From: Peptococcaceae bacterium
Lineage (GTDB): Bacteria; Bacillota; Peptococcia; DRI-13; UBA5745
Length of the DNA: 32,163 nt
Assembly: GCA_031264885.1 (NCBI GenBank)
Contig: JAISDM010000016.1
Location: forward strand, 1 to 32,163
Direction: 5' to 3'
Position numbers and translations under genes: made by a program. Shown piece after piece: positions 6,259-30,823 of this stretch; within the stretch, counting starts at the first letter, position 1; each line of letters starts with the position of its first letter. The notes under the pieces were generated by a model. The model searched no databases and was not told the DNA's origin. It worked only from the letters and a program-made list of their open reading frames with translations.

Positions 6259-7962
6259 TCAATTGTTGGCAGATCCACGCAGCATTGCATCCCAGTCGGA
6301 GGGCAGCTCGATCTTTTTACTTACTGGGTATCCTATAAATCCGTTCTGGGCGCAGACAAGGGTATGATCCCTGGCGGGGTCGCCGCTTACAGCGATCTGT
6401 AAATCATCGGGATCGGAGACCATCTGGACATACCGGTTCGGATCCGCGGACGTGCCCAGCTGTTCAGGCCAGCTCCCGTCTTCGATGCCCTTTTGGAACC
6501 GCGCGATTTCCTTCCCGCTCATATCAGCCGGCTTCAGCTTCGCGTTCTCATAGAGATACCGCTTGATTTTTTCCTTGGTATAGCCAGCCTTCGCCAACTC
6601 TTTCACCACGAGCGGCGTGAGTATGATCAAAGGTCGCGTCTTTTGGCCCCGGAAGAAGAACTGAATGAAAAGATGATTATCAGCCATACGCTTTGCGATG
6701 TTTTCCAGTGTGCCTTCGGCAGTGGGCATACCGGACTCGATCAGCTGAGTCCGCTCCGTGACGGAAGTCAGAGTGACGACATTATCCCCGGTCTTGAAGC
6801 CCCGATCAGCGCTCAATGGCTGCCAGCCGGCCTCGGCAATCGCGTCCTCGTTTTCCGCCAAAACAATTCTGAAGTTATCTCCAAAGCAGCCTTTATCCGC
6901 TTTATGAGGCAAAAATCCGCACACATTCCGTATGTACATACGCAGGAAACGGCCGATGCTGGTATTCGCCTGAAATCCGGGGCGAAGAATTCCCTGGGTA
7001 TAGTTAAACTCCAAATCCTTAATGATCTTGCCATTTATGATAATCAACGTTTCCGTTCCAGGCGTCTGCCCCAGATGCTCCTGGCCAAAATCCGGGTCGC
7101 ACAGCCCTTCGACAATGGCGATCAGTACAGGCATATATTCCGGGCGGCAGCCGCTCATCACGCCGTTTACGGCAATGTTCCAAATTGTCGCCTCACGGTT
7201 ATCCGGCTTCAAGACCCCGACGACCGAACCCGCGGGGCGCGCCGTAAACCGCAGGAATTTCTCCACCTCTTCAATCACCGGCGGAATGACAGGCAGACCG
7301 TCGCTCCACTCGCGCATATAATAAAAGTCGTTGACCTCCTTGAGATTACCGGAAAAAACGATATCTCTCATCCCCGGCTCCTTCACCGGCTTCGCGTCCG
7401 CCGGCTGCACAGTCAGAGCCTTGACAACCTGGTCGGTCATAACCTCGGCCGCGTTCTTATAAATCTCTTCATCCGTAAAGAAATTGACATGTCCCGGATG
7501 AACCGCGTAGGGCAAATTGGGATATCCTTCGCCCGCCGCATTGAAGCCGCCCGCCGTTTGGAAACCGTCACAACAAAGTGTCACGGTGGGAATCCCTAAC
7601 TTCTCAACCAAAATGCTGGTTCGGGTCACGGCGGCGATACAGCTGCCGCAGCAGCCGACGCCGCAGATTACGGCGTCTACGCCAAAGCTCTTCAGCTTCC
7701 CGGGGAGATCGGCCAATACCTCATGCTCCTTGCCCCCGTGAATTTCACCAAACTCCTTCCAGCTTATGAAACGGATCCCGGGATACCGTCTCCCCAACTC
7801 CGCTTCAAATCCCTCGCACATGACATCACCTTTGAAAACCCAATCCCATAACTCCGCTACGACCTTGCCCTCCAGCGTATCCAGGCGCTTCGCGAGTTTA
7901 GCGCCTGTTATGGTGGACTTTCCGCGGGGCCATACAACATCATACACATTGGCGTCTTTCAT
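6259..7962 (-). CDS. UGSC-family (seleno)protein homologue, Cys form, paralogue 1; putative thiol-dependent redox enzyme
   Basis: N-terminal GVDAVICGVGCCGSC...VEKLGIPTV; C-terminal domain WSDGLPVIPP, IAVNGVMSGCRPEY, ANTSIGR; RBS GAGGAGG; no in-frame TGA. Confidence 0.75.
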   Translation of the reverse strand: MKDANVYDVVWPRGKSTITGAKLAKRLDTLEGKVVAELWDWVFKGDVMCEGFEAELGRRYPGIRFISWKEFGEIHGGKEHEVLADLPGKLKSFGVDAVICGVGCCGSCIAAVTRTSILVEKLGIPTVTLCCDGFQTAGGFNAAGEGYPNLPYAVHPGHVNFFTDEEIYKNAAEVMTDQVVKALTVQPADAKPVKEPGMRDIVFSGNLKEVNDFYYMREWSDGLPVIPPVIEEVEKFLRFTARPAGSVVGVLKPDNREATIWNIAVNGVMSGCRPEYMPVLIAIVEGLCDPDFGQEHLGQTPGTETLIIINGKIIKDLEFNYTQGILRPGFQANTSIGRFLRMYIRNVCGFLPHKADKGCFGDNFRIVLAENEDAIAEAGWQPLSADRGFKTGDNVVTLTSVTERTQLIESGMPTAEGTLENIAKRMADNHLFIQFFFRGQKTRPLIILTPLVVKELAKAGYTKEKIKRYLYENAKLKPADMSGKEIARFQKGIEDGSWPEQLGTSADPNRYVQMVSDPDDLQIAVSGDPARDHTLVCAQNGFIGYPVSKKIELPSDWDAMLRGSANN

Positions 7963-8101: not shown

Positions 8102-8131
8102 AAAGCGAGCCAGGCTCGGCTCGCTTTTTTT
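8102..8131. terminator. Terminator-like hairpin after the LysR pair
   Basis: AAAGCGAGCC-6 nt-GGCTCGCTTT, flanked by A/T runs, directly at the stop of 8130-8990. Confidence 0.65.
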
Positions 8132-8990
8132 ATGCGTTCTCTTGGGGATACATGTCGTAAACAACATTGAGAAGCGCCATAACTACCGGAGACGGCGATT
8201 TGCGATGGAGAATGACCCCCACCGGCATAAGATCGGTCTCAAGCGGGACGGCGGCGAGCGAATTCAACATATTCACAAAAGACGCTTTGGTGATAAAAAC
8301 ACCATTGTTATAACAAATGCCCATAATGCTTTGCAGGTCATTGCTCGGAAGGGTCTCCAGCTTCAGATGATCACAACATTTGTTCAGCTGTTCCAAAAGA
8401 TCGGTGTTTTTCCACAATACTCCCACATGCTGACCGGATAAATCTTCCAACCGGATCGTCTGCTTTTTGGCCAGCGGATGATTTGGCAGGAAAAGGCACT
8501 TGTAGGGCATGGGAAAAAGCACGGTATACCGTATATCGGGGCGGTCCAGCATTGGATGATAGGTGCATTCGGCCACATCCGCCCGATCATGGAGTATATC
8601 TTCAACAAGATTGCCGCTTGCCTGCAATTTTATTTTAACCCCAGGAAATTTACGGGAGAATTCATTGAACACGTTGTCCAGCAGCAGATGTGGATGGGAA
8701 GGCGTTATAATGCGAACAGTCTGGTTTTGGAGCGCAAGTTCCCGGCCCCTTTGGGCAGCGGCTTCCATTTCGGCGATTGATTTCCTGGCGGCGTTACAGA
8801 ACAACTCGCCGGCGGGGGTCAGGGAGATACCCTGATGCGTGCGCACGAACAAAGTGAAGCCGAGCTCCTTCTCAAGGGAGTCGATCTGCTTCTTAACGGC
8901 CGGCTTTGAAAGATACAACGCTTCCCCGGCCTGGCTGAAACTGCCGCGCTCCGCTGTTGTAATCAGAGATTTGAGCTGCTGACTGTTCAT
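8130..8990 (-). CDS. LysR-family transcriptional regulator
   Basis: MNSQQLKSL...GSFSQAGEALYLSKPAVKKQIDSLEKELGFTLFVRT HTH; start reset to ATG 8990 after AGGAG. Confidence 0.93.
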   Translation of the reverse strand: MNSQQLKSLITTAERGSFSQAGEALYLSKPAVKKQIDSLEKELGFTLFVRTHQGISLTPAGELFCNAARKSIAEMEAAAQRGRELALQNQTVRIITPSHPHLLLDNVFNEFSRKFPGVKIKLQASGNLVEDILHDRADVAECTYHPMLDRPDIRYTVLFPMPYKCLFLPNHPLAKKQTIRLEDLSGQHVGVLWKNTDLLEQLNKCCDHLKLETLPSNDLQSIMGICYNNGVFITKASFVNMLNSLAAVPLETDLMPVGVILHRKSPSPVVMALLNVVYDMYPQENA

Positions 8991-9039
8991 AAACGCTCCT
9001 TTTGATTCTCTCCTCAATTCCTCTTCCGCGATCCGCGGT

Positions 9040-9921
9040 TTAGAAATTGGGAATTGGCAGGTCCATATAAAACTCAATGATGCTCTGCCGCATAAACGCC
9101 TGAGAAGCGTTCTTTGTGTCATTCTTTCGCCAATAAAGAGAGATCGGCAATTCAATATCAAAATTCTCAACAGGCAGAATGACCAGATCATCGTCGGCAG
9201 GCAGGTTGTACACCACCATAAGTCCAAGGCACCTGTTGGAACGGATGGCCTTGATCATATCGGCGGAATCGCGGCCCAAAAATGTAATTCGGGGATTAAA
9301 TCCGACAGACTGGGGCAGATCCTTGGCGAGACTAATCAGCGAGTGCGACACGCCGGTAGTTGAGCAGAAGGAGTGACGGTTCAAGTCACTCTTCGTAACC
9401 GTTTTCGCGTCCGCGAGCGGGTGTGCCTTATTGGCCACGACCGCCAGCTTATGATAACGGAGGAGCGCCCGGTCAATGCTCATATTGTTTGACCGGCCCA
9501 GCGTAATCACCAGGTCACAGTTATTGTTAACCAACTCATATTCCCAATTTTCCGGTATATTCTCCACCTTTAAATTCAGGCCCCGGGACAGCAAAAGATT
9601 AATCAGTTGGGAATTCGCCGGGGAAATAGAGCATGCCAGACGAACGAAATTCACCGATCTCTGCTTCAACTCTTCCATTTCGTTCATACACGAATCCATA
9701 ATATTTTCGACGGCGGTAACGCCCCGCAGAAAAATTTCGCCGTACTCATTTAACTGAATCCCCCGGCCGGTGCGGTCAAACAGCTGAAAGCCGATCTCCG
9801 CCTCCAGTCTGCGGATTGACGCTGAAAGCGAAGGCTGAGTAATGTTGAGCTGCTGGGCCGCTTTGGTCATATGCCGGGTACGGGCTACGACGGCAAAATA
9901 TTTTAAAGTGGCAATATCCAT
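9040..9921 (-). CDS. LysR-family transcriptional regulator
   Basis: LKYFAVVA...HMTKAAQQLNITQPSLSASIRRLEAEIGFQLFDRTGR HTH. Confidence 0.95.
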   Translation of the reverse strand: MDIATLKYFAVVARTRHMTKAAQQLNITQPSLSASIRRLEAEIGFQLFDRTGRGIQLNEYGEIFLRGVTAVENIMDSCMNEMEELKQRSVNFVRLACSISPANSQLINLLLSRGLNLKVENIPENWEYELVNNNCDLVITLGRSNNMSIDRALLRYHKLAVVANKAHPLADAKTVTKSDLNRHSFCSTTGVSHSLISLAKDLPQSVGFNPRITFLGRDSADMIKAIRSNRCLGLMVVYNLPADDDLVILPVENFDIELPISLYWRKNDTKNASQAFMRQSIIEFYMDLPIPNF

Positions 9922-9995
9922 AGGATCAGACCCCCTGATAAGGATCGGTTTACTCGTTGAGTTTCTCTCTTCACATGAATTTTGTTCTATTTTCT

Positions 9996-10075
9996 ATTAT
10001 AGCATATGTATTTGTAAGGGCCAATCATTTTGACAAATGATAGTCAAAACGTTATCAAATATACCATCGATAGTT
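9996..10075. promoter_or_regulatory. Leftward promoter of the LysR pair plus shared dyad operator (copy 1)
   Basis: Minus-strand TTGGCC-17-TATAAT (10024-9996); TGATAG-N8-TTATCA...ATCGATAGTT at 10038-10075 matches 19807-19844. Confidence 0.6.
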
Positions 10076-10150
10076 ATCGCCGTATAGTACCGAAAAAATG
10101 TCCTATTCGACTACACTGCGCGGTATACGGTATAATTTTGAGTAGGTTGT

Positions 10151-11065
10151 TTGGTATGGCGGCGCAACACACTTGAGCAAACCAATAAGATCATCAACGA
10201 AGAATCCCAGGCGACGAACGCCTATGAGACCGGCGAGGTTGATGTTCTGTCGCTGAACCCCACGGCGGATCTTGATTATCTCGCCGCCCTCCCCAACACC
10301 GCCCAGATTAGATTGGTCATGCCCACATGCACAATGATCCGCTTCAACATGAGTGAGAACTCCATAATGAACAACAAGGACGCCCGTTACGCAGTCATGT
10401 ACGCAACGGACTTCAACGCCGTCAAAAACATCGCCTACGGCGGGTTGGGTACGGTTCCTCAATTTATCATTTCCGCTAACGGCGACGAAACGGAGCCCGA
10501 ATTCCTCAACGCAACAACAATCTATTCCGATCTGGCAAACGGACCAAACTACGATCTTGCCAAAGAATACGCCGAGAAAGCCGGAATTGTCGGCAAGACC
10601 CTGACGATCATTAACGACAGTACCGCCGTGTTCCAAAGCAGCTGCGAAGTCCTTCAAGCCTGCCTCGGAAATATTGGCGTAAACCTTGAGATCGTAAACT
10701 ATGACGCCGGCAGCTTCAAGGAAAAATACGCCAGCCCCGATGGCTGGGATATGTTCCCCTCCGAGCATTCGAACCCGACCAACGCCAGTTACCCTCTCGC
10801 CACGCGTATCATTACCGCCAACAAGCTGTGCTGGTCCGGCCCGGAATATGACGCGGTCAACGCCCAGGCAAAGGAAGTCGTCGGTACCTTTGATCCGGCG
10901 AAACGCAAAACTCTTATGGAAGACTTCCTGGTTGTATTGCAGGATTACTCTCCGGCGTATAACCTTCTTGACAACGTGAAGGTTTACACATACGACTCCC
11001 GGCTCCGGGGCGTTGAAATCTTCCGTATGCATGACTTCCTTATCAAGGACTGGTCGTGGGTTTAA
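10151..11065 (+). pseudogene. 5'-truncated family-5 (Dpp/Opp) ABC substrate-binding protein
   Basis: Begins at the mid-protein motif KIINEESQATNAYETGEVDV; has DARYAVMYATD and YDLAKEYAEKAG; no signal peptide, lipobox or RBS; ~300 aa versus ~550 aa for the intact paralogue at 29085-30740. Confidence 0.75.
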
Positions 11066-11168
11066 CGGATGTATCCAATTGAAGAGTCAATAAAGCAACG
11101 GCCACTGGTTGGTCACAGCCGGTGGCCACCGTTTTTTAGCTGCTTTATCGAAAGGGGTTATAAAGGAT

Positions 11169-12152
11169 TTGAGCAAGTTCGTTATAAGACGGATACTTTG
11201 GATGATTCCTACACTTCTCTGTGTTGTGCTTCTGATCTTTGTCCTGTTCGAGATAACGCCTGGAGACCCCGCGCTGACAATTCTGCCGAGCGACTCCTGG
11301 ACAGAGGAAAACATCGCGCGGGTTCATAAAGAGCTTGGATTGGACGACCCAATTCTCGTGCGCTATGTCCGTTATTTAGGCAACGCGGTACAAGGCGATC
11401 TCGGCACGAGTTATCTGACCAAAACCTCTGTAACCAATGAGATCGCTCAAAAGTTTCCCTATACAATGAAAATCACATTTATCAGCGTAATTATGGCCAT
11501 CGTCGCCGGCATCCCATTTGGTGTAATCGCGGCAAAACACCAGTACACACTGACAGACAACATTTCCGTTTTTATATCTCTGTTGTTTGTGAGTATGCCA
11601 AATTTCTGGTTCGCGCTTCTGCTTGCGCGATTTTTCGGCGTCCAGCTGGGGTGGCTGCCGACGACCGGCGTCGAGACATGGACAGGGTACATATTACCGA
11701 GCGCCACAGTCGCCATTACTTCACTTGCGGCCATAACCCGTCAGACACGCTCAAGTATGCTTGAGCAAATCCGTCAGGATTATGTCGTCACCGCGCGCGC
11801 CAAGGGTCAGATCGAAGGAAAGGTTATCTACGGCCACGCGCTGAAAAACGCGCTGATCCCGATTATCACAGTCGTCGGTACAAATATTGCCAATCATCTT
11901 GGCGGAACATTGGTCGCGGAGACCATCTTCTCAATCCCCGGCCTTGCCAAGTACATGATTACCGGCCTGAACGGGCGTGATTACCCTGTCGTTCTGGGTT
12001 CAGTCCTTTTTATTTCGGCCGTGTTCTGTATCGTCATGATGGTCGTCGATATTATTTACGCCGTCGTTGACCCGCGTATCCGCATTCAGATGATGAAGAA
12101 GAACAATAGCGGCAGAAAAACCAAGGCCAGAAAGGAGGCTGCGGCAGCGTGA
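11169..12152 (+). CDS. Dpp/Opp-type ABC transporter permease (DppB/OppB-like)
   Basis: KFVIRRIL, PGDPA, GLDDPILVRY, EAA loop TARAKG, ETIFSIPG, RDYPVV; TTG start at 11169. Confidence 0.93.
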   Translation: MSKFVIRRILWMIPTLLCVVLLIFVLFEITPGDPALTILPSDSWTEENIARVHKELGLDDPILVRYVRYLGNAVQGDLGTSYLTKTSVTNEIAQKFPYTMKITFISVIMAIVAGIPFGVIAAKHQYTLTDNISVFISLLFVSMPNFWFALLLARFFGVQLGWLPTTGVETWTGYILPSATVAITSLAAITRQTRSSMLEQIRQDYVVTARAKGQIEGKVIYGHALKNALIPIITVVGTNIANHLGGTLVAETIFSIPGLAKYMITGLNGRDYPVVLGSVLFISAVFCIVMMVVDIIYAVVDPRIRIQMMKKNNSGRKTKARKEAAAA

Positions 12153-13006
12153 GTAGAGGAAAAAAACAATTACGTATATACGAAGTCTGGCGTCAGCTTC
12201 GGAAGAATAAATTCGCCATGGCCGGCATGGTGATCATCATTCTGCTGGCGCTTGTCACTATTTTCGCTGATCAGTTAGCGCCATACCACTTTGAGACGGC
12301 CGACTTTTCCGCCTCCTTCGCGAGGCCCTCCGCCGAGCATCCCCTCGGATGCGACAAACTTGGACGCGACACCTTGAGCCGCGTCATTTACGGCGCGAGA
12401 ACGAGTCTGCAAATCGGTCTCGGCGCCACGGTGATCGCCACGGTCGTCGGCGTCGTACTCGGCGCCTTCTGCGGCTACTACGGCGGCTGGATCGACACAA
12501 TTTTTATGCGCTTTCTCGATATCTTCCAGTCCATTCCAAATCTGCTGTTCAGTATCGTGCTTGCGGCATCGCTGGGCGTCGGCGTCAAAAACGCCATCAT
12601 AGCCGTAGGCATAACATCCGCGCCGCTGTTCGCGCGTATGATACGGGGCAGCATTATGCAGATCCGCGGCAGTGAATACATTGAGGCGGCCCGGTCGATC
12701 AACGCGCGGGATCCCCGCGTTATTATCAAGCACATTATCCCCAACGCCATCTCTCCTGTCATCGTACAGATCACCATGAAGATCGGCAGCGCCATCATCT
12801 ATGGCGCGACGCTCAGCTTCATCGGGCTCGGAGCCCAGCCGCCCACAGCCGAGTGGGGCGCGATGATTTCGGAGGCGAGAAATTACATCCGCAATTATCC
12901 GGCGCTTATTATGTATCCCGGCGCCGCCCTGATGATCTGCGTGCTGGCGTTCAATCTGTTTGGCGACGGTCTGCGTGACGCTCTCGATCCGCGTTTGAAG
13001 AACTAA
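12149..13006 (+). CDS. Dpp/Opp-type ABC transporter permease (DppC/OppC-like)
   Basis: HPLGCDKLGRD, EYIEAARS, KHIIPN, LSFIGLG, GDGLRDALDP. Confidence 0.95.
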   Translation: MSRGKKQLRIYEVWRQLRKNKFAMAGMVIIILLALVTIFADQLAPYHFETADFSASFARPSAEHPLGCDKLGRDTLSRVIYGARTSLQIGLGATVIATVVGVVLGAFCGYYGGWIDTIFMRFLDIFQSIPNLLFSIVLAASLGVGVKNAIIAVGITSAPLFARMIRGSIMQIRGSEYIEAARSINARDPRVIIKHIIPNAISPVIVQITMKIGSAIIYGATLSFIGLGAQPPTAEWGAMISEARNYIRNYPALIMYPGAALMICVLAFNLFGDGLRDALDPRLKN

Positions 13007-13019
13007 GGAGGTGGCAGCG

Positions 13020-14024
13020 ATGGAGAAAACGGCTCAGGCCGGCGAGGCTTTCTTAGATATCAAGGATCTCGTCGTTGAGTACCACACCGACGACGCGGTC
13101 ATTCACGCCGTTAACGGTGTAAACCTGAAACTGGCAAAGGGCGAGACGCTCGGCCTCGTTGGTGAAACCGGCGCCGGGAAGACAAGCATCGCCAGAAGCA
13201 TTCTGCGTATTCTGCCAGATCCGCCGGCCAAAATCATGAAAGGCGAAATTTGGTTCAACGGCGAGAATATACTGAAGCTCCCGGAAAAAAAAGTCCGCTC
13301 AATCCGCGGCGATAAAATCAGTATGATATTCCAGGACCCCATGACAGCCCTGAACCCGATTGAAACAGTAGGCAGCCAGATTTCCGAGGCAATCCGGCTG
13401 CATAACAGCATCTCAAGAGCCGACGCCAACAAACAGGCCGTACAAATGCTTGAGACGGTCGGCATCCCCGGCAAGCGTTTCACCAACTATCCTCTTGAGT
13501 TTTCAGGCGGGATGAAGCAGCGGGTGGTTATTGCCATGGCGCTGGCCTGCAAACCGGAACTGCTGCTGGCTGACGAGCCGACCACCGCGCTGGATGTCAC
13601 CATCCAAGCACAGGTACTCGAAATGATGCGTGACCTGCAAAAAGACTTCGGCGCCTCCGTTATCCTGATCACACACGACCTCGGCATCGTGGCCGAAATG
13701 TGCGAGAAGGTCGCCATCATCTACGCCGGAGAGGTCGTTGAATACGGTACGGCGGAGGATATCTTTGACCACCGCGCGCATCCCTATACCGAAGGACTTT
13801 TCGGTTCTATCCCAACGATCCATACCAAAACAAAACGTTTAAATCCCATTCGGGGCATGATGCCCGACCCCGCCAATCTGCCGTCCTGCTGCCGGTTTGC
13901 CGGTCGCTGTCCGTACACCACAGACGAGTGTACAAGCAGCTATCCCGAGATGGTCGAATGCAAGTCCCAGCCACACACAGTACGTTGTGTACGCGCCAGG
14001 GTAAAGGAAGGGGGGAGCCAATGA
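13020..14024 (+). CDS. Dpp/Opp-type ABC transporter ATP-binding subunit (DppD-like)
   Basis: Walker A GETGAGKT, FSGGMKQR, DEPTTALD, HPYT, Cys-rich oligopeptide-ABC tail; ATG 13020 after AAGGAGG. Confidence 0.95.
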   Translation: MEKTAQAGEAFLDIKDLVVEYHTDDAVIHAVNGVNLKLAKGETLGLVGETGAGKTSIARSILRILPDPPAKIMKGEIWFNGENILKLPEKKVRSIRGDKISMIFQDPMTALNPIETVGSQISEAIRLHNSISRADANKQAVQMLETVGIPGKRFTNYPLEFSGGMKQRVVIAMALACKPELLLADEPTTALDVTIQAQVLEMMRDLQKDFGASVILITHDLGIVAEMCEKVAIIYAGEVVEYGTAEDIFDHRAHPYTEGLFGSIPTIHTKTKRLNPIRGMMPDPANLPSCCRFAGRCPYTTDECTSSYPEMVECKSQPHTVRCVRARVKEGGSQ

Positions 14025-14968
14025 GCGATATTCTCGAAGTACAAGAACTGAAAAAATACTTCCGGGTGGACGGCGGCAGCCAGCTTCACGCGGTAGACGG
14101 TGTCTCCTTCAAAATTGAAAAAGGACAAACCCTTGGCGTCGTCGGGGAGTCCGGCTGCGGTAAATCGACATTGGGCCGCGTCATTCTGCATCTGATCGAA
14201 CCCTCCGGCGGGCAGATTTTCTTTGAAGGCAAGGATATCTCCAATCCTAACCGCAGCATGATCAATTACGTCCGGGAGAACATGCAGATCATTTTCCAAG
14301 ACCCGTTTTCCTCGCTTAACCCGCGTATGAGCGTCAGCGAGACGATCATGGAGCCCATGATTATAAAGGGCGGGATCTCACGGTCCGACATGTACGAGAA
14401 AACATTGAAACTGATGGATACCGTCGGCCTCGCCCAGCGTTTTACGAATTCCTATCCCCATGAACTCGACGGCGGGCGCCGCCAGAGAATCGGCATTGCG
14501 CGCTCGCTCGCGCTTGACCCCAAGTTCATCGTCTGCGACGAGCCCGTCTCCGCGCTGGACGTCTCTATACAGGCACAGATATTGAACCTGCTGCTGGATC
14601 TGCAGGAGGAGCGGAACCTGAGCTATATCTTCATCACTCACGATCTGTCCGTTGTAAAATACATCTCCAACAACATCCTCGTCATGTACCTTGGGCAGAT
14701 GGTCGAACTGGCGCCATCCGACGAGCTGTTTGAGAACCCGGCGCACCCCTACACAGAGGCGCTGCTTTCCGCCATCCCTGTCGCGGATATCCATGTAAAA
14801 CACGAACGCCTCCAAATGAAGGGAGAACTGACGAGTCCGATCGATCCGAAGCCCGGCTGCCGCTTCATGGCCCGCTGCCCATATGCCGCGGAAAAATGCG
14901 CCGAGCCCCAGACACTGCAAAATATCTCCCCGGATCACCAGGTTTCCTGTTGGATGAAGCAATCCTAA
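14021..14968 (+). CDS. Dpp/Opp-type ABC transporter ATP-binding subunit (DppF-like)
   Basis: [37 protein letters not shown]; ATGA overlap with the previous gene. Confidence 0.95.
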
Positions 14969-18001: not shown

Positions 18002-19723
18002 TTACATCTGAGCTTCTTTCAGCATTTCATTCCAATGATCCGGGAGCTTGACCGCCTGGCTGGTGAGCTTGCCCATCGAGTAGTTCGACCGGAAGAACTG
18101 GCTGCGGTTACGGGTCGGATCCCCGACGACAATGACGACAATGTTGGCTTCTTTCCAGAACAGCGGCACCATACGCTTGGGGTCGTCGGATTCATACCAT
18201 TCCGGATCAAGATTCCCCATCCCGACCTCTTCCTTTAAGCTGTAAGGCTGCCAATGATTAAACCGGGATACGTTCGTTTCGAAGTACTCGGCGGTAACCT
18301 TCGCGTGGGCGAGGATGTACTTTGTAATGGATTCTTTATCATACCCGCTCCCGGCAAGCAGCTTCGCGACGGCCGGGCTTAAGAACAGGACGTTGTTATC
18401 CTGATATCTGCGCATTGTCTGATAGGGTTCAGTCATCCTGGCTGCCCAGTCGGTCAGATAATCCAGATGCTGTTCCGCGGTGGAACCGTTCGTCTGCATC
18501 GGGTCGCTGCATACGCGGCCGGAAACGATCGTGACGACGTTTTCGCCTTTGTCGAAGCCCTGCGTCTCAGCGACTGTCTTGAAGCCGATTTCTTCACAGA
18601 CTTGGTCATTCTCCGGGATAACCGGACGGAACATCTGTCCGTAGGTCGACATATCCGTCGAACCGATCTGGAACCCGGCGATGTTGCGCAGTATCAGGCG
18701 ATAGAAGCGGCCTACCGTTACGTTCGGCATACAATCCGGACGCTGATGCCCGATTTTGTAGTTGAATTTAAGTTGATCACGAATGGGCCCGTTCAGCATG
18801 ATCATCGCTTCCCACCCCGGAGTGGCGCCGGAGTCTTTGACGCTAAACTCAGGGGTCGCCATGATCTCGGCGATGGCGAGAAGCAGCGGGAAATATTCCG
18901 GATGACAGCCGGCCATAACACCGTTAACCGCGACTTTCCAAACAGTGCAGGAGGCCATGGACGGCTCCATAATGCCGATCACTTCCTCAGGATCGCGGTC
19001 CGTGAATTTCAGGAACTTCTCAATTTTTTCAACAGTCGGAGGGACAATCGGAAGACCGTCCGACCATTTCATTTCGTAGAAATAATCCTGGATCTCCTCG
19101 TTGCTTCCCTCAAAAATAATATCGCGGGAAGCCGGCCCTCTCTTTCTTTCCCTAGCCGTACTTTTGACAGGCGTTGTAAGGGCGGCGGCGATCTTCGGAA
19201 CGACAGCGTCACGAATGTTTTTGCGGACGGTATCCGCCGAATCCAGCGCGATCGGGTTCGGATATTCCACGAAACGGGCGTCCGGGTAGCCGGCGCTCTT
19301 CGCGTTCTGTTTTGCCATGGGTGGGAAGCCCTTGCAGAGTATGCCGACAGCCGGAATGCCCTGCCGCTCGACCAACACAACGCCGCGCGCCACAGCGGGA
19401 GAGCAGGTACCGCAGCAGCCGTTGCCGACAATTACGGCGTCAATGCCGTTTTTCTTAAGCTGTTCCGGAAGAGCCGCCATCATCTCGGCTTCATAAGACG
19501 GATCATGGAAATTGCCGAAGGTCTTGTAGCCGACAAATTTAATGTCCGGATACATGGCTTTTAATTCTTCTTCAATCATCGGGAAGGTTTCATCGCCGCG
19601 GAACGCCCAGTTCCAAAGCTCGCCGATGGTTTTTCCGTTGAGATCGGGGATGGACGGAGAAACTGTTTTGTCTTTTGAGACAGATACCGCGGCTGGATAA
19701 ACAACCTGAAGAACGCCACTCAT
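18002..19723 (-). CDS. UGSC-family (seleno)protein homologue, Cys form, paralogue 2
   Basis: GIDAVIVGNGCCGTC...VERQGIPAV; WSDGLPIVPPT, VAVNGVMAGCHPEY; colinear with 6259-7962 over its full length. Confidence 0.75.
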   Translation of the reverse strand: MSGVLQVVYPAAVSVSKDKTVSPSIPDLNGKTIGELWNWAFRGDETFPMIEEELKAMYPDIKFVGYKTFGNFHDPSYEAEMMAALPEQLKKNGIDAVIVGNGCCGTCSPAVARGVVLVERQGIPAVGILCKGFPPMAKQNAKSAGYPDARFVEYPNPIALDSADTVRKNIRDAVVPKIAAALTTPVKSTARERKRGPASRDIIFEGSNEEIQDYFYEMKWSDGLPIVPPTVEKIEKFLKFTDRDPEEVIGIMEPSMASCTVWKVAVNGVMAGCHPEYFPLLLAIAEIMATPEFSVKDSGATPGWEAMIMLNGPIRDQLKFNYKIGHQRPDCMPNVTVGRFYRLILRNIAGFQIGSTDMSTYGQMFRPVIPENDQVCEEIGFKTVAETQGFDKGENVVTIVSGRVCSDPMQTNGSTAEQHLDYLTDWAARMTEPYQTMRRYQDNNVLFLSPAVAKLLAGSGYDKESITKYILAHAKVTAEYFETNVSRFNHWQPYSLKEEVGMGNLDPEWYESDDPKRMVPLFWKEANIVVIVVGDPTRNRSQFFRSNYSMGKLTSQAVKLPDHWNEMLKEAQM

Positions 19724-19883: not shown

Positions 19884-21554
19884 CTATATGCGGTACAACC
19901 GCGTGGCATACTCATATATAAGCGCGTCCAGCCCCTCGCTCACGCCTTGGTAATGGCGCATTTCGCCGTCTTGGTCCAAGTACCCGAAGTCATCCCCGGC
20001 TGACGGCCAATAAGGCAGCCCCTCACCGTTAGGATCTCCCTTGCGGCAGAAATTCGCCCAATAGCCGCAGACGATGTCCGCCACCCGATAATCCAATTCC
20101 CGCCAGGGGCGGTTCGCCGGTACGCCGCCGGCAAGCGACCGGAAAGCATACCACTGGTCGCTGCCGTGAAACGCCAGCCGAAGGTCGGGGTTCATCTTTG
20201 GATCCGTCATATCTTCGGGGTGAACCGGGGGTATATGCGACCACAGGTAAGCGTATACGGACATGTTTGGGCGCAACTTCTTCATGTGCATACCGAACAG
20301 CCGGTGCAGCATCAAACTGCGGGCGCCGCTGGACTTCCCGTTGCCGGTCAGCCCCAGCGAGGCCAGCCGCCTGGCTTTCTTTGCCGCGTTTTCGTCCGTT
20401 ACCTTCACGAGCGCCTCAAAATCATACTTATCGTACAAATCCCCCAGCATATAGCGAAAATGAGCGTAAAAATCAGCCGCGTTCCCGATGGATTTCTTTA
20501 GGGGATATCGCGTTTCCCCGTCTCCGTCGTGGTGCCCAAGGTAAAACACAGGGTCGCCCGGATCCGTAAAAACCAGCGCCTCCCCGTAGGTGGCGCCGCC
20601 CATAACGTCGATATCGTAATCCAGCTTCTCAAACGCCTCATAAAAAGAACCGTATGGAATATAGTCCCCGTCGCATACCATATCGCCTATGACATAATCC
20701 CGCGCCAAATCAAAGCTGAACACGCGCTCTGCCGGCAGCTTGCGCAGATCGTCCAGGGGCGTGTCCGCCGCGATGCCCAACTGTCCCAGGTAATCTGTCC
20801 CGAACCGCTCCGCCTCCGGCACGGTGGGGAATTTCATGAACCAACGGAAAACACTCTGGGCAATAACGCGCTTCACCCGTCCGCGGGCATAGGGGCACAG
20901 GGCGATGGCGTTGGATTTCCATGTGCCGCCCGACACGCCGCCCACGGTAATGTTGTTCGGATCGCCGCCAAATTGCTCAATATTCTCCGTTACCCAGTCC
21001 AGCGCGGCCAACTGATCCATTAGCCCATAGTTGCCGCTTTTCCCGCCCTGCTCGGCCGAAAGCTGCGGCAGCGCGATATAACCGAACGGGCCAAGGCGCT
21101 GCCCCACACTCACGGCCACAATGCCGCGTTTGGCGAGGCCGACGGGGTTGTTCTGCACTTCATAGGAAAACCCGGTGGTCAGACCGCCCCCATGAAACCA
21201 GATAAACACGGGCCGTTTCTCGCCGGGCCGCGCCGCGCCTGTGCAAACGTTCAGATACAGGCAGTCCTCGCTGATTGCCGGCGCCGCCGCGGATACCGTG
21301 TCGTCATCGCCCTTCACGTCGGCGGAATCCCGGCGGTGTACCCATTTCATATCCTGGTAGGCAGCCGGCGCAAACGAGTCACAGCTGCGCACCCCATCCC
21401 AAGGGGCAGGCGGCGCGGGCGGCGCCCACCTAAGCGGACCCACCGGCGGAGCGGCATATGGAATGCCCTTAAACAGCGTCAAACCGTCCGCGTCTTCCCC
21501 TGCCGAAACACCCCGCGTCTTCCCGTATATCGTTTTTACAATCCCAATCGGCAT
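19884..21554 (-). CDS. Type-B carboxylesterase/lipase (PnbA-like)
   Basis: FKGIPYAAPPVG, SEDCLYLNV, WFHGGG, GNYGLMDQ, FGGDPNNIT, GVSGG, FHGSD, WANF..GDPNG; start 21554 or 21560 after AAGGAG. Confidence 0.93.
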   Translation of the reverse strand: MPIGIVKTIYGKTRGVSAGEDADGLTLFKGIPYAAPPVGPLRWAPPAPPAPWDGVRSCDSFAPAAYQDMKWVHRRDSADVKGDDDTVSAAAPAISEDCLYLNVCTGAARPGEKRPVFIWFHGGGLTTGFSYEVQNNPVGLAKRGIVAVSVGQRLGPFGYIALPQLSAEQGGKSGNYGLMDQLAALDWVTENIEQFGGDPNNITVGGVSGGTWKSNAIALCPYARGRVKRVIAQSVFRWFMKFPTVPEAERFGTDYLGQLGIAADTPLDDLRKLPAERVFSFDLARDYVIGDMVCDGDYIPYGSFYEAFEKLDYDIDVMGGATYGEALVFTDPGDPVFYLGHHDGDGETRYPLKKSIGNAADFYAHFRYMLGDLYDKYDFEALVKVTDENAAKKARRLASLGLTGNGKSSGARSLMLHRLFGMHMKKLRPNMSVYAYLWSHIPPVHPEDMTDPKMNPDLRLAFHGSDQWYAFRSLAGGVPANRPWRELDYRVADIVCGYWANFCRKGDPNGEGLPYWPSAGDDFGYLDQDGEMRHYQGVSEGLDALIYEYATRLYRI

Positions 21555-21624
21555 GGTCATCTCTCCTTAAACGGTACGTATTCATAGCCCGCGCAGACTC
21601 TTGATCAGCCCGGGTCCGGATTGA

Positions 21625-21647
21625 GGGCGGCAGAATGCCGCCCCTAC
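21625..21647 (-). repeat. GTAG-type REP, third copy
   Basis: Identical to 236-258; intergenic between the two esterase genes. Confidence 0.85.
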
Positions 21648-21656
21648 GGTACATAT

Positions 21657-23132
21657 TTATAGTTCGCGCAGACTCTTGATCAGCCCCGGATGGTCGGCTG
21701 CGAAGCGAACGGCCTGCTTGGCGGCGGGGTTCCGCGCCAATTCCTCCGCCGCGTATCCCATATCGGTAAAGTGCATGGACACCGGGTTTTCTTTAGTATA
21801 GGCCGGCCAAGGCTTCAACCCTTCCCCGTTCGGGTCGCCCGTCTTTGCGAAATTGGTCCAATAATCCACCATCGCTTCCGACAATTCCTTATCATACGCG
21901 GTGAAACCGCCGTTTCCCGCGTCAGCCGCTTCCACCATGCCCATCACATACCGGATCTCGCTGCCGTGAGGCGTAGGGTTCTGCAGTCCCCTTTGCCGGG
22001 CGGGGGGCTGGGTCCGTTCGAAGTGGTAGGTGAATATCGGCCTGCGTCCCGTGTCTGTCTGCCGAATTGCCCAGGAAACGCCTCTGGAATAGACGAACGC
22101 CGGAATCATCCTCTCGTCGGCCACTTCATGGCGCACGATTTTGATCCATCCGCTGTCGCCGCTGACAGACCCGGCAATCACCGGAATATCCGCACATTCG
22201 CCTTTCCATATCCCCACGCCGGGCGTAACCGTCAGGATGTCGCCGTCAATGTCCGGCTGGAACACCGATTTCTCCCAGGATTCCAGTTCCCCGGCAGTGG
22301 CGTCCCGCAGCATGTCGTTCACCTCGCCGGCGTCCTTTTTCATCAAATCATCCGCCGTCCAGCCGAGTCTGTCCATTCCCCGCCGGCAGACGCCGATTTT
22401 TTCATCCAACGGACGATAATTGTCGGAATCGGTCACGCCGCCGCCGGATTCCACGATCACCCGCCGCATCATGTGCCGCGCGCGGGGTGAACACATCAGC
22501 ATGCGGGCGCTCATCCCGCCCGCGGAGAATCCGAACACCGTAATATTGTCCGCGTCCCCCCCGAATGCGCCGATGTTCCCGCGAACCCAGGAAAGAGCCG
22601 CTATCTGGTCCAGAAGCCCGTAGTTTCCCGTCGTCCCGTCCCGCGCTTTCAACGCGTCCAACGCAAGGAAGCCCAGCGCGCCCAAGCGGTAATTGACCGT
22701 GACCAAGATCACGCCCTTCCGCGCGAACGCCTCCCCGTCAAATTCCGGGGAAGTCCCGCATCCGGTAACAAACCCGCCCCCGTGGATCCAGAACATGACC
22801 GGGCAATTTCCCCTCTCGGATTCCCTCCCTGCCGGGCCGCCGCCCGTTTTCCCCGCCGCTCCCGCAGGCGCCCAGATATTCAGGTACAGGCAATCCTCAC
22901 CGATCTCCCGGACGTCCGGGTCGCCGAAGGGTTTATGCTGCACCGCGGACGCGGAGAATTTATCACAAAGAAGCACCCCCGCCCATGGCAGCGGTCTTTG
23001 GGGCGGCGTGAACCGCAGCATGCCCACAGGCGGCCTGGCGTAGGGGATCCCCTTAAACACCGTGACATTCTCATCCCTCCCCGGCACACCCTTCAGCAAG
23101 CCATATTGTGTGGGAACTGTATCCATAGCCAT
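21657..23132 (-). CDS. Type-B carboxylesterase/lipase (PnbA-like)
   Basis: FKGIPYARPPVG, EDCLYLNIW, WIHGGGF, NYRLGALGF, GFSAG, PHGSEI, WTNFAKTGDPNG; start reset to ATG 23132 after AAGGAG. Confidence 0.94.
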   Translation of the reverse strand: MAMDTVPTQYGLLKGVPGRDENVTVFKGIPYARPPVGMLRFTPPQRPLPWAGVLLCDKFSASAVQHKPFGDPDVREIGEDCLYLNIWAPAGAAGKTGGGPAGRESERGNCPVMFWIHGGGFVTGCGTSPEFDGEAFARKGVILVTVNYRLGALGFLALDALKARDGTTGNYGLLDQIAALSWVRGNIGAFGGDADNITVFGFSAGGMSARMLMCSPRARHMMRRVIVESGGGVTDSDNYRPLDEKIGVCRRGMDRLGWTADDLMKKDAGEVNDMLRDATAGELESWEKSVFQPDIDGDILTVTPGVGIWKGECADIPVIAGSVSGDSGWIKIVRHEVADERMIPAFVYSRGVSWAIRQTDTGRRPIFTYHFERTQPPARQRGLQNPTPHGSEIRYVMGMVEAADAGNGGFTAYDKELSEAMVDYWTNFAKTGDPNGEGLKPWPAYTKENPVSMHFTDMGYAAEELARNPAAKQAVRFAADHPGLIKSLREL

Positions 23133-23165
23133 AAGATTTCTCCTTCCGCGGACGAGTATGAGTTT

Positions 23166-23198
23166 AGGACTTGTGCAACTTATTATTGCACAAGTCCT
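23166..23198. promoter_or_regulatory. 13-bp perfect inverted repeat between LysR and esterase (operator or RNA hairpin)
   Basis: AGGACTTGTGCAA-7 nt-TTGCACAAGTCCT, with no U-tract. Confidence 0.55.
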
Positions 23199-23211
23199 TA
23201 GACGCTCAAGT

Positions 23212-24120
23212 TTAGACCCCCGCCGTTCCGGGGTTGGGCGCGCCTTCCCCGTTTGCCGCTTCATCCACAAACACTCGGACAGACGGGTTATCGGCGGGAT
23301 CGCAGTAGTACATGTTTACGTCGAAAGCGCAAGGCACGGTCGTGACCTGGGAAAGCGCGATATTGCGGTACTCCCCGCTGACCACGGACTTGGGTACGAT
23401 GGTCACGCCGTTTCCAAGGGAAACCATCAGCAAGGCGCTGTCCACATTTGGCACGGGGATCACATTGATCCGCCCGTTCGTATGTTTTTCCGCAAGTATG
23501 CGGTTCTGCGCGTACGGCCCCCAGAATTCGTCGTCAAAAGGCACAAACAGGTTTTCTTTTTCCAACTCTTTCAACTCGACAAACGGGGATTTTTGCAGCC
23601 GGCGGCCTGCCGGGAAAGCCACGAAGGCCGCCTGGCGAAAGGCTGCGGAGCATTTGATTTTATCCAACAGCTGCGTGTACGCGCAGGGGGACAGAAACAC
23701 GTCGTTTTCGAGGATTTCGCGGGATGTGACCGGCCCCCGCGCCACGCTGAGCGACAGGGCGATCCCCCGGTACCGGGCGGAAAACCGATGGATGAAGTCC
23801 AATGTGCCGCGCCCCAGGGAGCTTCTCGTGCAGGCGATTTTGAGCGTTCCGCCATCGGTTTGCCCGCCGATTTTGATGCGGCTTTCCAGTTTCGCGCATT
23901 TTTGAATCAGCCGCGCCGCGTCAAGCGATAACTGCTTGCCCGCCTCCGTCAGGCACATGGCGCGCGTGCTGCGCACGAACAGCTTGAATCCCAATTCTTC
24001 CTCCATTTCAAGGATATGACGGCTCAACACAGACTGGGTGATGTAGAGTTTTTTTGCCGCCAAGCTGTAGCTGCGCGTGTCGGCAAGCACCAGGAACTCC
24101 TGCAGGCGGTTCGTGGTCAT
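23212..24120 (-). CDS. LysR-family transcriptional regulator
   Basis: RLQEFLVLA..RSYSLAAKKLYITQSVLSRHILEMEEELGFKLFVRSTR HTH; 4-nt overlap with the upstream LysR. Confidence 0.93.
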   Translation of the reverse strand: MTTNRLQEFLVLADTRSYSLAAKKLYITQSVLSRHILEMEEELGFKLFVRSTRAMCLTEAGKQLSLDAARLIQKCAKLESRIKIGGQTDGGTLKIACTRSSLGRGTLDFIHRFSARYRGIALSLSVARGPVTSREILENDVFLSPCAYTQLLDKIKCSAAFRQAAFVAFPAGRRLQKSPFVELKELEKENLFVPFDDEFWGPYAQNRILAEKHTNGRINVIPVPNVDSALLMVSLGNGVTIVPKSVVSGEYRNIALSQVTTVPCAFDVNMYYCDPADNPSVRVFVDEAANGEGAPNPGTAGV

Positions 24121-25025
24121 TCCCCGACCCTCCCCTCGCCCGCGGCAAGAAAGGCTTTGAGCGCGTCCGCGAACAATGCCGCTGCCTCATTGGCCGGCTC
24201 CTTCTGACAGTAAAACCGCATCATCGCCTCGCCGCCGTCGCATAGAGAAAGAGCCACCGAGTCCGGCGGGGCTGCCGCCAGAGACGCCAACGGGTACATG
24301 GCCAGCCCTTTTTCCACGGACACCAGGTATTTGAACCATGTCTTGTCCTGGACATCGCCGCACAGCGAATAGGATATTCCCGATTCTTCCAATATCGCCT
24401 CTTGCCGGCGGCGTATGGCGGGTTCCCGGGTCTCCGGGTAGAGTATAAACTGCTCCCCCTCCAGTTCCTTGACGGACACTTCCGTCCGCCCCGCCAGCGG
24501 ATGGTCTTTAGGCACAAACACATACTGGTTCATCACACACACGTCCATGCCGCGTATCTGCGCTGTCTGCTGGGATTCTACGTAAAACGCGAAATACACG
24601 TCCACATCCCCCGCCTCCAGGCTGTCCATCACGCCATAGGCCGCGTCGTCGGTGAATTCCAGGTGCAGGCCGGGGTACATCCGGTTGAAACCGCGCAAAA
24701 ACTGCCTCAGCGCCGGCGGCAGTTCCAGCCCCATCACCGCCAGTTTTAAACGCCTGTACGCGCCGAACGCCGTATCGGCCCCCCGGCGCGCGATCCGCTG
24801 GTAATCCTCCAGAAGCTCGCGGCACTCATCAAAAAAGCATCGCCCGTCCGCCGTCAATTCCACCCGATGGGCATTGCGCGCAAGCAGCCTGACCCCAAGG
24901 CTGTTCTCAAATTTGGAAAAACGCGCGCTCAAAACCGCCGCGGACACCTGAAGCCGTGCCGCCGTCCGCGCAAAACTGCCCGACTCGGCAATCAGGATAA
25001 ATTCTCTCAAACGCTCATAGTTCAT
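24117..25025 (-). CDS. LysR-family transcriptional regulator
   Basis: MNYERLREF...GSFARTAARLQVSAAVLSARFSKFENSLGVRLL HTH; start reset to ATG 25025 after GAGGTG. Confidence 0.93.
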   Translation of the reverse strand: MNYERLREFILIAESGSFARTAARLQVSAAVLSARFSKFENSLGVRLLARNAHRVELTADGRCFFDECRELLEDYQRIARRGADTAFGAYRRLKLAVMGLELPPALRQFLRGFNRMYPGLHLEFTDDAAYGVMDSLEAGDVDVYFAFYVESQQTAQIRGMDVCVMNQYVFVPKDHPLAGRTEVSVKELEGEQFILYPETREPAIRRRQEAILEESGISYSLCGDVQDKTWFKYLVSVEKGLAMYPLASLAAAPPDSVALSLCDGGEAMMRFYCQKEPANEAAALFADALKAFLAAGEGRVGE

Positions 25026-25046
25026 GTCACACCTCAATTCGAGGCA

Positions 25047-25075
25047 ATTGTAGCACAAATGCCATGAGACTGGAA
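25047..25075 (-). promoter_or_regulatory. Putative internal promoter for the second LysR pair
   Basis: TTCCAG-17 nt-TACAAT with extended -10 TG. Confidence 0.45.
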
Positions 25076-25124
25076 GCGGCAAATCCACGGCGGCGGTGTG
25101 GTTCCGCGCGATGGTTCCGCGCGG

Positions 25125-26087: not shown

Positions 26088-26098
26088 GGGGACTCCTT

Positions 26099-27058: not shown

Positions 27059-27104
27059 CTGACACCTCGTTAGCCTGTCTTGCGGCCATTGCGTTTAACG
27101 AATT

Positions 27105-28016: not shown

Positions 28017-28040
28017 TTTATTTCCCTCCGTGACCGTTGG

Positions 28041-28985: not shown

Positions 28986-29084
28986 CGCGGTTTTCCTTTT
29001 TCATGTCGTCGTTGTCAATTCGCCCGGGACACATGTGATTGCGTTACGCAGGATCCCCCGCCGGCAATATGTGCCGGCGCGCTG

Positions 29085-30740: not shown

Positions 30741-30823
30741 CTTTGAACCTCCTCTCACCTCACTGTTACTCTCTGCGTGTTTCATTATTCACGCTTTTAT
30801 TCACGCCTTCGTTTCACAGTAAA

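Follow-up and report, generated by a model that had tools for sequence, protein, structure and literature searches.

Two related genes in the window, that is, in the whole stretch of 32,163 nucleotides that was analysed, are, as judged from their sequences, cysteine-type members of the UGSC-fusion family, most members of which are C-U-G-S-C selenoproteins. They represent further members of a known family and not a new type of system. A "UGSC/Unknown_1 fusion" was described in 2008 by Zhang and Gladyshev, according to the available text of their paper (PMC2398784), and UGSC is still given as uncharacterised in reviews as late as 2026 (PMC13188914). The encoded proteins are most likely thiol-dependent reductases which act on a carboxylate catabolite.

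Architecture of the two window proteins

Paralogue 1 (6262..7962, minus strand, stop codon at 6259-6261) codes for 567 amino acids, in which a UGSC domain (residues 8-184; 7411..7941, minus strand) is fused to an uncharacterised C-terminal domain (residues 195-567; 6262..7380, minus strand), the latter containing a WSDGLPxxPP motif (7291-7308) and Cys272 (codon 7147-7149). The C104-C105-G-S-C108 motif is located at 7639..7653 of the minus strand, where the DNA from 7639 to 7656 reads GGC TGC TGC GGC AGC TGT, i.e. G103-C104-C105-G-S-C108, and C105, which occupies the Sec column, is encoded by TGC at 7648-7650. Paralogue 2 (18005..19723, minus strand, stop codon at 18002-18004; 573 aa) exhibits the same architecture, with a UGSC domain at residues 7-183 (19175..19705, minus strand), a C103-C104-G-T-C107 motif at 19403..19417 (minus strand; C104, in the Sec column, is TGC at 19412-19414) and a C-terminal domain at 18005..19135 (minus strand), whose Cys273 (codon 18905-18907) is the equivalent of Cys272. 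The original prediction had placed CCGSC within 7560-7700 and CCGTC within about 19350-19460, both with Cys encoded by TGC and not TGA. Both motifs were located there, the second as G102-C103-C104-G-T-C107 at 19403-19420, the second Cys of each is TGC, and the quoted flank LKSFGVDAVICGVG...VEKLGIPTV matches the 567-aa ORF (6259-7962, minus strand). Homology between the two proteins spans their entire length (36% identity, E 3e-130), and the motif they have in common is therefore inherited and not due to chance. At E<=1e-3, paralogue 1 has 2579 homologues and paralogue 2 has 2739 (8000 candidates scored for each).

The assignment of the N-terminal domain is based on Pfam PF24696 (172 model positions, gathering cut-off 25 bits), which matches paralogue 1 with 119.1 bits (E 2.9e-34, model positions 1-171) and paralogue 2 with 101.7 bits (E 6.5e-29, positions 2-171); at the column of the U/C-G-S-C motif the window proteins carry C-G-S-C and C-G-T-C. 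NF041046, a model built on a stand-alone UGSC protein of ~147 aa, gives 54.7 and 68.5 bits for the window proteins, below its equivalog cut-off of 125 bits, and is matched by all 60 of 60 aligned fusion proteins at E<=0.01 (best E 6.1e-19). The AF2 model of paralogue 1 (pLDDT 89.9, pTM 0.91) shows a Rossmann/flavodoxin-like alpha/beta/alpha fold for this domain, with C-C-G-S-C at the junction of strand 97-103 and helix 106-121. When the full model was compared by VIA-align, matches covered residues 28-190, i.e. only the N-terminal domain, and comprised SDRs, receiver domains and cobalamin-binding domains (Z 9.1-11.4); the best 50 matches listed are Rossmann/flavodoxin-like and none of these is described as thioredoxin-fold, whereas a thioredoxin-like fold was suggested for UGSC in the available text of the 2008 paper (PMC2398784). 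Foldseek with the full-length model yielded only matches of TM<0.2 (FtsZ, MccF, NQO1), and at the sequence level no PDB chain matched the family profile with an E below 0.29.

The C-terminal domain, of ~375 residues (AF2 pLDDT 93.1), had been predicted to be a large uncharacterised WSDGLP domain, and it indeed lies outside every Pfam family: in 81/81 members Pfam detected no family besides UGSC in the N-terminal parts. It is likely the Unknown_1 domain in the available text of PMC2398784. Cys272 is present in 128/128 sequences examined, and Arg327, Asn333, Arg338, Arg341, Asn346, Asp356, Arg365 and Glu370 are likewise invariant. The domain alone gave no match at Z>=8 among 48,161 chains in VIA-align (best Z 5.8) and 0 matches at E<=1e-3 in Foldseek. 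The top fold matches, to class I fumarate hydratases (6uqn, 7xky), are weak both in Foldseek (E 1.1e-3 to 2e-2, TM 0.23-0.25, rmsd 15-18 Å) and in VIA-align (Z 4.1-4.4, 193-195 residues at 5.4-6.2 Å). Homologues of the domain at E<=1e-3, when grouped at 50% identity, amount to 3773 representative clusters. Among its structural look-alikes in the Atlas (TM 0.84-0.86), 18-25% of cluster members carry AhpC-TSA/Redoxin domains, a link which serves as a lead only; an Atlas feature search limited to named clusters that lack UGSC yielded nothing usable.

The selenocysteine column in relatives and in the host

A survey of TGA against TGC at the motif column found TGA in 75/78 related genomic loci, and always TGA. 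A conserved hairpin 14 nt 3' of this codon is paired in 91.7% of cells, by an explicit pair count over the hairpin segments (n=38), compared with only 29-52% for slid partner columns. TGA is thus the rule among homologues, as supposed when the paralogues were first taken for Sec-to-Cys variants, and together with the hairpin this identifies the window genes as Cys forms of a C-U-G-S-C selenoprotein. Both have TGC at this position and hence no in-frame TGA, and in paralogue 1, read against the conserved helix, a SECIS-type stem can form only 2/6 pairs. A metagenome scan for paralogue 2 recovered 3 loci, with CCGTC in 3/3; its truncated relatives of 437-466 aa probably contain TGA, to judge from the start positions of the gene calls. 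The vicinal Cys is present as originally described, but it is not an extra residue of the Cys forms, since a Cys already stands immediately 5' of the Sec column in 71/78 loci; in the wider family this residue is A, S, G or other. The motif Cys proved conserved and not variable, with 102/128 aligned family members retaining the redox pair (U or C followed by x-x-C). A distinct group, 22/76 full-length non-Sec gene calls, has G-G-A-S-G in place of the motif and an N-terminal domain devoid of Cys but retains Cys272, so that the redox pair is dispensable for some members; in the tree this Cys-less clade is well supported and adjoins the Sec and Cys clades.

The host genome itself contains four matches to PF24696, namely Sec, Cys, Cys and Cys-less paralogues. 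The third paralogue, on contig C194, has an in-frame TGA and the hairpin; at the start of the contig lie the C-terminal 242 residues of SelB (SelB-wing_2 E 1.6e-14, SelB-wing_3 E 3e-15), and a thioredoxin-reductase-like gene with a CATC active site lies 1 kb upstream of the Sec paralogue. The fourth paralogue, on contig C286, has G-G-A-S-G, no Cys in the N-terminal domain and a retained Cys272. The search for Sec machinery in the host, proposed with the original prediction, gave a divided result: SelD and the SelB fragment were found, whereas neither SelA over the cut-off nor tRNA-Sec was found in the assembly of 308 contigs. The notion that the host is devoid of Sec decoding, and that the Cys forms were thereby forced, is rejected in view of the SelB end and the TGA-containing paralogue of C194. 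The neighbourhoods of relatives include SelB genes at 11 loci and SelD-like genes at 4. The gene is found in 3/11 genomes of the host's GTDB family and 4/88 of its class, too few for a tally of Sec against Cys.

Gene neighbourhoods and a proposed reaction

In the window, two type-B carboxylesterase genes (19884..23270, minus strand; Pfam COesterase E 2.2e-77 and 8e-104) lie directly upstream of paralogue 2, and their position suggests that they may be tied to its enzyme. Farther upstream are two LysR regulators and an Opp/Dpp-type ABC importer (23212..30785, minus strand), which consists of two ATPases, two permeases and one family-5 binding protein, whose best NCBIfam matches (GsiB/NikA/Opp-type) are all below cut-off. 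Paralogue 1 likewise has two LysR regulators upstream, together with a divergent Opp/Dpp-type ABC transporter operon (8130..14968, no single strand assigned). Among relatives, the commonest neighbour cluster is thioredoxin-reductase-like, with 24 genes in 23/79 loci and a representative of 307 aa that scores 320 bits on TIGR01292; these counts are rough, as the crude ORF heuristic by which neighbourhood genes were called yielded antisense shadow ORFs in GC-rich loci. Further neighbours are of carboxylate type: CoA-transferase III, MmgE/PrpD, MaoC-like hydratase, TctC, MatC/CitMHS, UbiD and lactonase.

We consider it an even bet that the proteins work as single-chain, thiol-driven reductases, i.e. 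Cys-type UGSC fusion enzymes with catalysis at Cys272 and a relay through C105/C108. The C-terminal domain would be the catalytic or substrate-binding part, which binds the carboxylate catabolite, and Cys272 would join in the chemistry. The CxxC pair C105/C108, at the strand-to-helix junction of the N-terminal domain, would serve as the redox centre and supply two electrons (from Sec/Cys in most relatives), becoming a disulfide, or a selenenylsulfide in the Sec forms. Re-reduction with NAD(P)H could then be carried out by the thioredoxin-reductase-like flavoprotein or by the general thioredoxin system. The reductase would consist of one chain and require neither a pyruvoyl subunit nor GrdA.

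The window holds no thioredoxin-reductase-like gene; this and the existence of Cys-less members (22/76) count against a redox relay.

The same Cys-less members, common and forming a well-supported clade with an intact Cys272, would also fit a non-redox isomerase, hydratase or lyase, in which Cys272 is a nucleophile or acid/base and the UGSC domain is mainly structural or regulatory; hydratases and MmgE/PrpD enzymes are indeed among the neighbours. However, the costly Sec is kept in 75/78 loci, which speaks for a chemical role of this residue, and the family is linked with thioredoxin-reductase-like genes, so such an enzyme appears unlikely. The four cysteines C104, C105, C108 and C131 might, on another account, build a metal or iron-sulfur site, structural or engaged in electron transfer, with no dithiol/disulfide cycling. 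They are missing together in the Cys-less clade, C131 occurs only alongside the redox pair (75/102 sequences versus 0/26 without the pair, an association that is weak evidence because related sequences are not independent), and the weak top fold matches of the C-terminal domain are Fe-S-dependent enzymes. Such a site is nevertheless improbable, given that most members carry Sec at position 105, that many Cys forms have A, S, G, L, N or D in place of C104, that C131 is missing in 27/102 members with the redox pair and that the most frequent neighbouring gene encodes a disulfide reductase.

The likeness of the motif to the Sec site of GrdB/PrdB, which had prompted the original prediction, is supported by profile comparison, and the N-terminal domain, a module of Rossmann-like fold, is a relative of the C-terminal segment in which these proteins carry their Sec. 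In hhalign, the family profile aligned with a GrdB alignment at a probability of 86.7% (E 4.4e-6, 105 columns), residues 77-189 falling on GrdB 319-426 (its last ~110 residues) and the GrdB Sec on C105, the second Cys of the motif; PrdB matches at E<=0.01 were obtained for 18/60 family members. Scores on the protein B models are far below cut-off (TIGR01918, 24.5 bits for paralogue 2 against 65.45; TIGR04483, 25.3 and 15.3 bits for the window proteins against 300), and the window proteins are therefore one-domain relatives and not members.

This homology, and the family-5 solute-binding proteins (peptide/opine type) that adjoin 6 relatives and both window copies, could be taken to indicate a Stickland-type reductase, in which the C-terminal domain would cleave itself at Cys272, yielding a pyruvoyl group for the binding of an amine substrate, with the Cys/Sec attacking the alpha-carbon. 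This must be regarded as very improbable, not only for the low GrdB/PrdB scores. The C-terminal domain profile reached a probability of just 1.2% against a 9-sequence GrdE-type alignment and 5.7% against GrdB, the latter through leftover UGSC residues only, and Pfam found no Gly_reductase match among 81 family members; by these comparisons the domain is unrelated to GrdE/PrdA. Furthermore, the host genome, at 96% completeness, contained no GrdC/D and yielded nothing in searches for GrdE/PrdA (PF09338), GrdA (PF04723) and GrdB, whereas the same searches found matches in other genomes of the phylum; PF09338 was found in 5/5 GrdB-bearing genomes as a positive control, and the PF04723 search had none. 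As for the early suggestion of a stand-alone reductase or lyase, either activity is putative, and the proteins probably do have a partner, as a thioredoxin-reductase-like gene lies next to relatives in 23/79 loci and next to the Sec paralogue of the host.

Significance and comparison with known systems

A broader proposal, put forward tentatively, is that the UGSC fusions form an undescribed enzyme class, which would combine a domain of unsolved fold, with Cys272 acting on a carboxylate, a GrdB-like Sec/Cys centre and a thioredoxin-reductase-like flavoprotein of its own. Candidate substrates would be di- or tricarboxylates with unsaturation or substituents, lactones and ester products. If true, this would be a single-chain counterpart of the Stickland protein B, without a pyruvoyl subunit. 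The C-terminal domain comprises thousands of clusters, yet it is outside Pfam and without a clear solved structural relative. Cys homologues are ordinary for selenoproteins; the two Cys copies are useful rather than surprising, and they ease the laboratory study of a widespread selenium enzyme family. They are intact, fused and free of Sec, so that a first activity of the family might come from screening substrates with protein expressed in the ordinary way in E. coli, and a selenoprotein family that ranks among the most abundant in aquatic environments may thereby become accessible to assay. The four paralogues of one genome provide a natural comparison series.

The closest known system is the UGSC family itself (PF24696, NF041046), with which the window proteins have the U/C-G-S/T-C centre in common; they differ from UGSC selenoproteins in carrying Cys in place of Sec. 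In the available text of PMC2398784, the UGSC/Unknown_1 fusion is, like the window proteins, joined to a conserved unknown domain. With GrdB/GrdF/GrdH/PrdB (TIGR01918, TIGR01917, TIGR04483), homology extends over ~110 residues round the redox centre, whereas the first ~318 residues of GrdB have no counterpart in the window proteins. Grd systems are linked to thioredoxin-system genes, and both selenoprotein B and the family of the window proteins exhibit a UxxC-type centre together with this gene linkage; glycine/proline reductase, however, needs a pyruvoyl proprotein (GrdE/PrdA) and GrdA, and the host genome gave matches to neither. Class I (Fe-S) fumarate hydratase, the fold that two programs place first, if weakly, for the C-terminal domain, offers a lead and not a relationship: both families are linked to carboxylate metabolism, but the C-terminal domain has a single conserved Cys and therefore no three-Cys cluster site.

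Cys-type genes among Sec-encoding relatives

The two paralogous genes, of 567 aa (paralogue 1, positions 6259-7962, minus strand) and 573 aa (paralogue 2, 18002-19723, minus strand), share 36% identity over their full length (E 3e-130) and are Cys-type members of a known family of unknown function. Residues 8-184 and 7-183, respectively, match the Pfam UGSC domain (PF24696) at 119.1 and 101.7 bits (cut-off 25), and the NCBIfam UGSC_fam model scores the two proteins at 54.7 and 68.5 bits, under its 125-bit equivalog cut-off. The motif of paralogue 1 is encoded by GGC TGC TGC GGC AGC TGT (G-C104-C105-G-S-C108; 7639-7656, minus strand), and that of paralogue 2 reads G-C103-C104-G-T-C107 (19403-19420, minus strand). 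The presence of TGC rather than TGA in both copies, as stated in the original prediction, is confirmed in the DNA, and the flanking strings quoted with it match both paralogues.

A genome-wide scan turned up 601 stretches that code for relatives; of these, the best 79 served as the loci for the codon tally and the neighbor survey. One of the 79 (L088) is frameshifted and lacks a readable motif. The comparison of TGA with TGC at the motif column, proposed together with the motif, came out strongly on the side of Sec: at the position of C105, 75 of the 78 loci with a readable motif have TGA and three have TGC, any stop at this column is TGA without exception, and C-U-G-S-C is found in 71/78. Many database homologues are gene calls of 430-480 aa that start just past the motif, because the codon at the C105 column is TGA.

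A hairpin lies 3' of the TGA, its 6-bp helix beginning 14 nt past the codon and enclosing a CGUGxU loop. Across the 75 TGA loci, the 42-nt segment has a mean MFE of -19.4 kcal/mol; the two window genes give -10.8 and -11.5 kcal/mol. Helix positions pair in 91.7% of cells, versus 29-52% when the partners are slid, and six cells are compensatory; because the stem is formed by codons for Pro-Ala...Arg within a conserved peptide, protein constraint contributes to the pairing. The 13 residues after the Sec/Cys codon (GSCIAAVTRTSIL) are identical in paralogue 1 (7603-7650, minus strand) and in the Sec gene at L012 (6313-6354), relative to which the synonymous changes ACG to ACC and CGG to CGA in paralogue 1, as read from the sequence, abolish two of four stem pairs. 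By the same kind of reading, five of six pairs are still possible in paralogue 2.

Four paralogues in one host and the spread of the family

The host genome, 96% complete at 3.26 Mb in 308 contigs, carries four family genes, namely the two Cys copies and one gene on each of two further contigs. The third (C194, 6779-8599, minus strand) has one in-frame TGA within G-V-G-C-U-G-S-C and a SECIS-like hairpin, and the fourth (C286, 2588-4297, plus strand) reads G-G-A-S-G, its N-terminal domain being devoid of Cys while Cys272 of the C-terminal domain is kept. The selA/selB/selD check suggested earlier was borne out for selD, which is present, and for the C-terminal part of selB (242 residues at the edge of C194, positions 1-729); SelA and tRNA-Sec were not found in the 308 contigs, possibly owing to assembly gaps. 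A host devoid of both SelA and SelB was rejected as a whole, as C194 carries the SelB C-terminus and the TGA paralogue. The TGA paralogue, the SelB portion and SelD together indicate that the host is probably Sec-competent, with Sec, Cys and Cys-less versions of the gene maintained in the one genome. The practical value of the host paralogues lies in this four-state set within one genome, and that of the window copies in being Sec-free, fused and intact.

A quick maximum-likelihood tree of 81 rows combined the two window genes and the two other host copies with 52 of the 79 loci and 25 full-length database proteins; truncated gene calls were left out, so that the database rows contain too few Sec forms. 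Paralogue 1 groups with two Cys proteins of 81-84% identity (SH-aLRT 100); its sister is a Sec clade (support 98) that unites the host C194 gene with genes from Desulfosporosinus, Paenibacillus and Lachnospiraceae, followed outward by a Cys-less clade with the host C286 gene (support 99). Sec forms lie deeper in the tree, on which at least eight state changes are needed. For paralogue 1, parsimony favors a change from Sec to Cys, although the root is not fixed. Paralogue 2 falls among Cys proteins of 72-82% identity, named by NCBI as Lachnospiraceae MAG proteins, and its CCGTC recurs in three metagenome loci that are 75-81% identical to it. The G-G-A-S-G type, with no N-terminal Cys and Cys272 kept, forms its own clade and, among 76 full-length gene calls from databases, accounts for 22. 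The gene is patchy (3/11 genomes of the host GTDB family, 4/88 of the class), which suggests horizontal transfer. Transposase-like genes lie near three of the four host paralogue loci (PDDEXK_2 in the window, 15052-16062, minus strand; YhgA-like Transposase_31 on C194, 2262-2780, minus strand, and on C286, 4455-4973, plus strand), and together with the patchy distribution suggest mobility of these loci.

Gene neighborhoods

Neighbors were clustered from heuristically called ORFs in the 79 loci and the window. A cluster found in 23 loci, with 24 genes, is the commonest; its representative is a 307-aa thioredoxin-reductase-like protein (Pyr_redox_2; TIGR01292 at 320 bits, cut-off 343 bits). Further clusters comprise TctC receptors (13 loci), CoA-transferase III (12), SelB (11), MmgE/PrpD and TauD (8 each), 3-hydroxyacyl-CoA dehydrogenase, MaoC-like hydratase and family-5 binding proteins (6 each), and SelD-like proteins, MatC/CitMHS carriers and UbiD (4 each). 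In at least seven loci (L046, L054, L074, L080, L082, L086 and L087) the fused Sec gene is immediately followed by another gene that encodes the C-terminal domain by itself (about 390-420 aa, without UGSC, at about 7700-9150), and the thioredoxin-reductase-like gene often comes next.

On C194 the order is a LysR regulator, enoyl-CoA hydratase, MaoC-like gene, thioredoxin-reductase-like gene (CATC site; 9232-10152, 1 kb upstream of the Sec paralogue), LUD-domain gene, the Sec gene, MmgE/PrpD and MatE. No such flavoprotein occurs near either window copy, and a single further thioredoxin-reductase homologue (33% identity) exists in the host genome. Paralogue 2 is preceded by two carboxylesterases, two LysR genes and an Opp-type importer, and farther out lies a 7-bladed lactonase; lactonase, UbiD/UbiX, CoA-transferase III, MaoC-like and CitMHS genes lie near its close relatives. 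A family-5 solute-binding ORF (10151-11065, plus strand, 304 aa) covers only profile positions 154-348 of 368, a LysR gene (9040-9921) occupying the place of its missing N-terminal part, and it may be a truncated remnant heading the ABC operon. Two further ORFs lack any Pfam or NCBIfam match: one of 471 aa with a lipoprotein-like N-terminus (16068-17483, plus strand) and a hydrophobic one of 164 aa directly past the paralogue 2 stop (17505-17999, minus strand).

Domains, proposed mechanism and known systems

No Pfam family covers residues ~195-567, and among 81 aligned members Pfam reports UGSC alone, located N-terminally in 53. A search of 1.84 billion representative proteins with the C-terminal domain yielded 3773 at E<=1e-3, of which 2273 reach E<=1e-10; the architectures include UGSC plus C-terminal domain (about 565-590 aa), TGA-truncated gene calls, the stand-alone domain (about 344-420 aa), the reverse order, and multi-domain proteins with a central UGSC (845-1254 aa). 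In three of the last (P0303, P0313, P0316) the C-terminal domain is repeated on both sides of UGSC, and a copper amine oxidase N-terminal-like domain is present in one of the three. Folded alone, the domain is modeled at pLDDT 93.1 and pTM 0.93. Its best Z score against solved chains is 5.8, short of 8, and Foldseek gave no match at E<=1e-3, with class I fumarate hydratases (TM 0.23) as the weak top rows. Cys272 is present in 128/128 sequences, and complete or nearly complete conservation in the family alignment extends to the WxDGLPxxPPT motif and several Arg, Asn, Asp and Glu residues. Profile comparison found the domain unrelated to the N-terminal part of GrdB and to GrdE-type proproteins (hhalign 1.2%).

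The most likely reading, at roughly even chances, is a thiol-dependent reductase, in which the C-terminal domain would bind a carboxylate-type catabolite and employ Cys272, electrons would come from the C105/C108 pair, and the thioredoxin-reductase-like protein or thioredoxin would return this pair to its reduced state. Two points count against this reading: the frequent Cys-less N-terminal domains with intact Cys272 (the 22 of 76 above) and the lack of a published assay. Among the rivals, a non-redox enzyme is unlikely, a metal or Fe-S site quite unlikely and a pyruvoyl Stickland-type enzyme very improbable. 

A resemblance to the Sec site of GrdB/PrdB was originally proposed. NCBIfam PrdB and GrdB models match the window proteins weakly (15-25 bits), and a 60-sequence family alignment at E<=0.01 gave UGSC_fam in 60/60, PrdB in 18/60 and TIGR01918 in 3/60. 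The resemblance was upheld by profile-profile comparison with a GrdB alignment from 11 loci in other genomes of the phylum, where the family matched GrdB positions 319-426 of 431 (probability 86.7%, E 4.4e-6) and the GrdB Sec aligned to the second Cys of the window motif.

Full-text literature searches found no functional study of UGSC proteins; passages of reviews from 2022 and 2026 (the latter PMC13188914) describe them as uncharacterised, and a "UGSC/Unknown_1 fusion" is mentioned in a passage of Zhang and Gladyshev 2008 (PMC2398784). In the AF2 model of paralogue 1 (pLDDT 89.9, pTM 0.91) the motif lies between strand 97-103 and helix 106-121, and no thioredoxin-fold protein is among the 50 structural matches listed for the N-terminal domain. 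The 2008 paper guessed a Trx-like fold for UGSC, whereas the modeled domain resembles Rossmann/flavodoxin-like alpha/beta/alpha proteins (Z 9-11).
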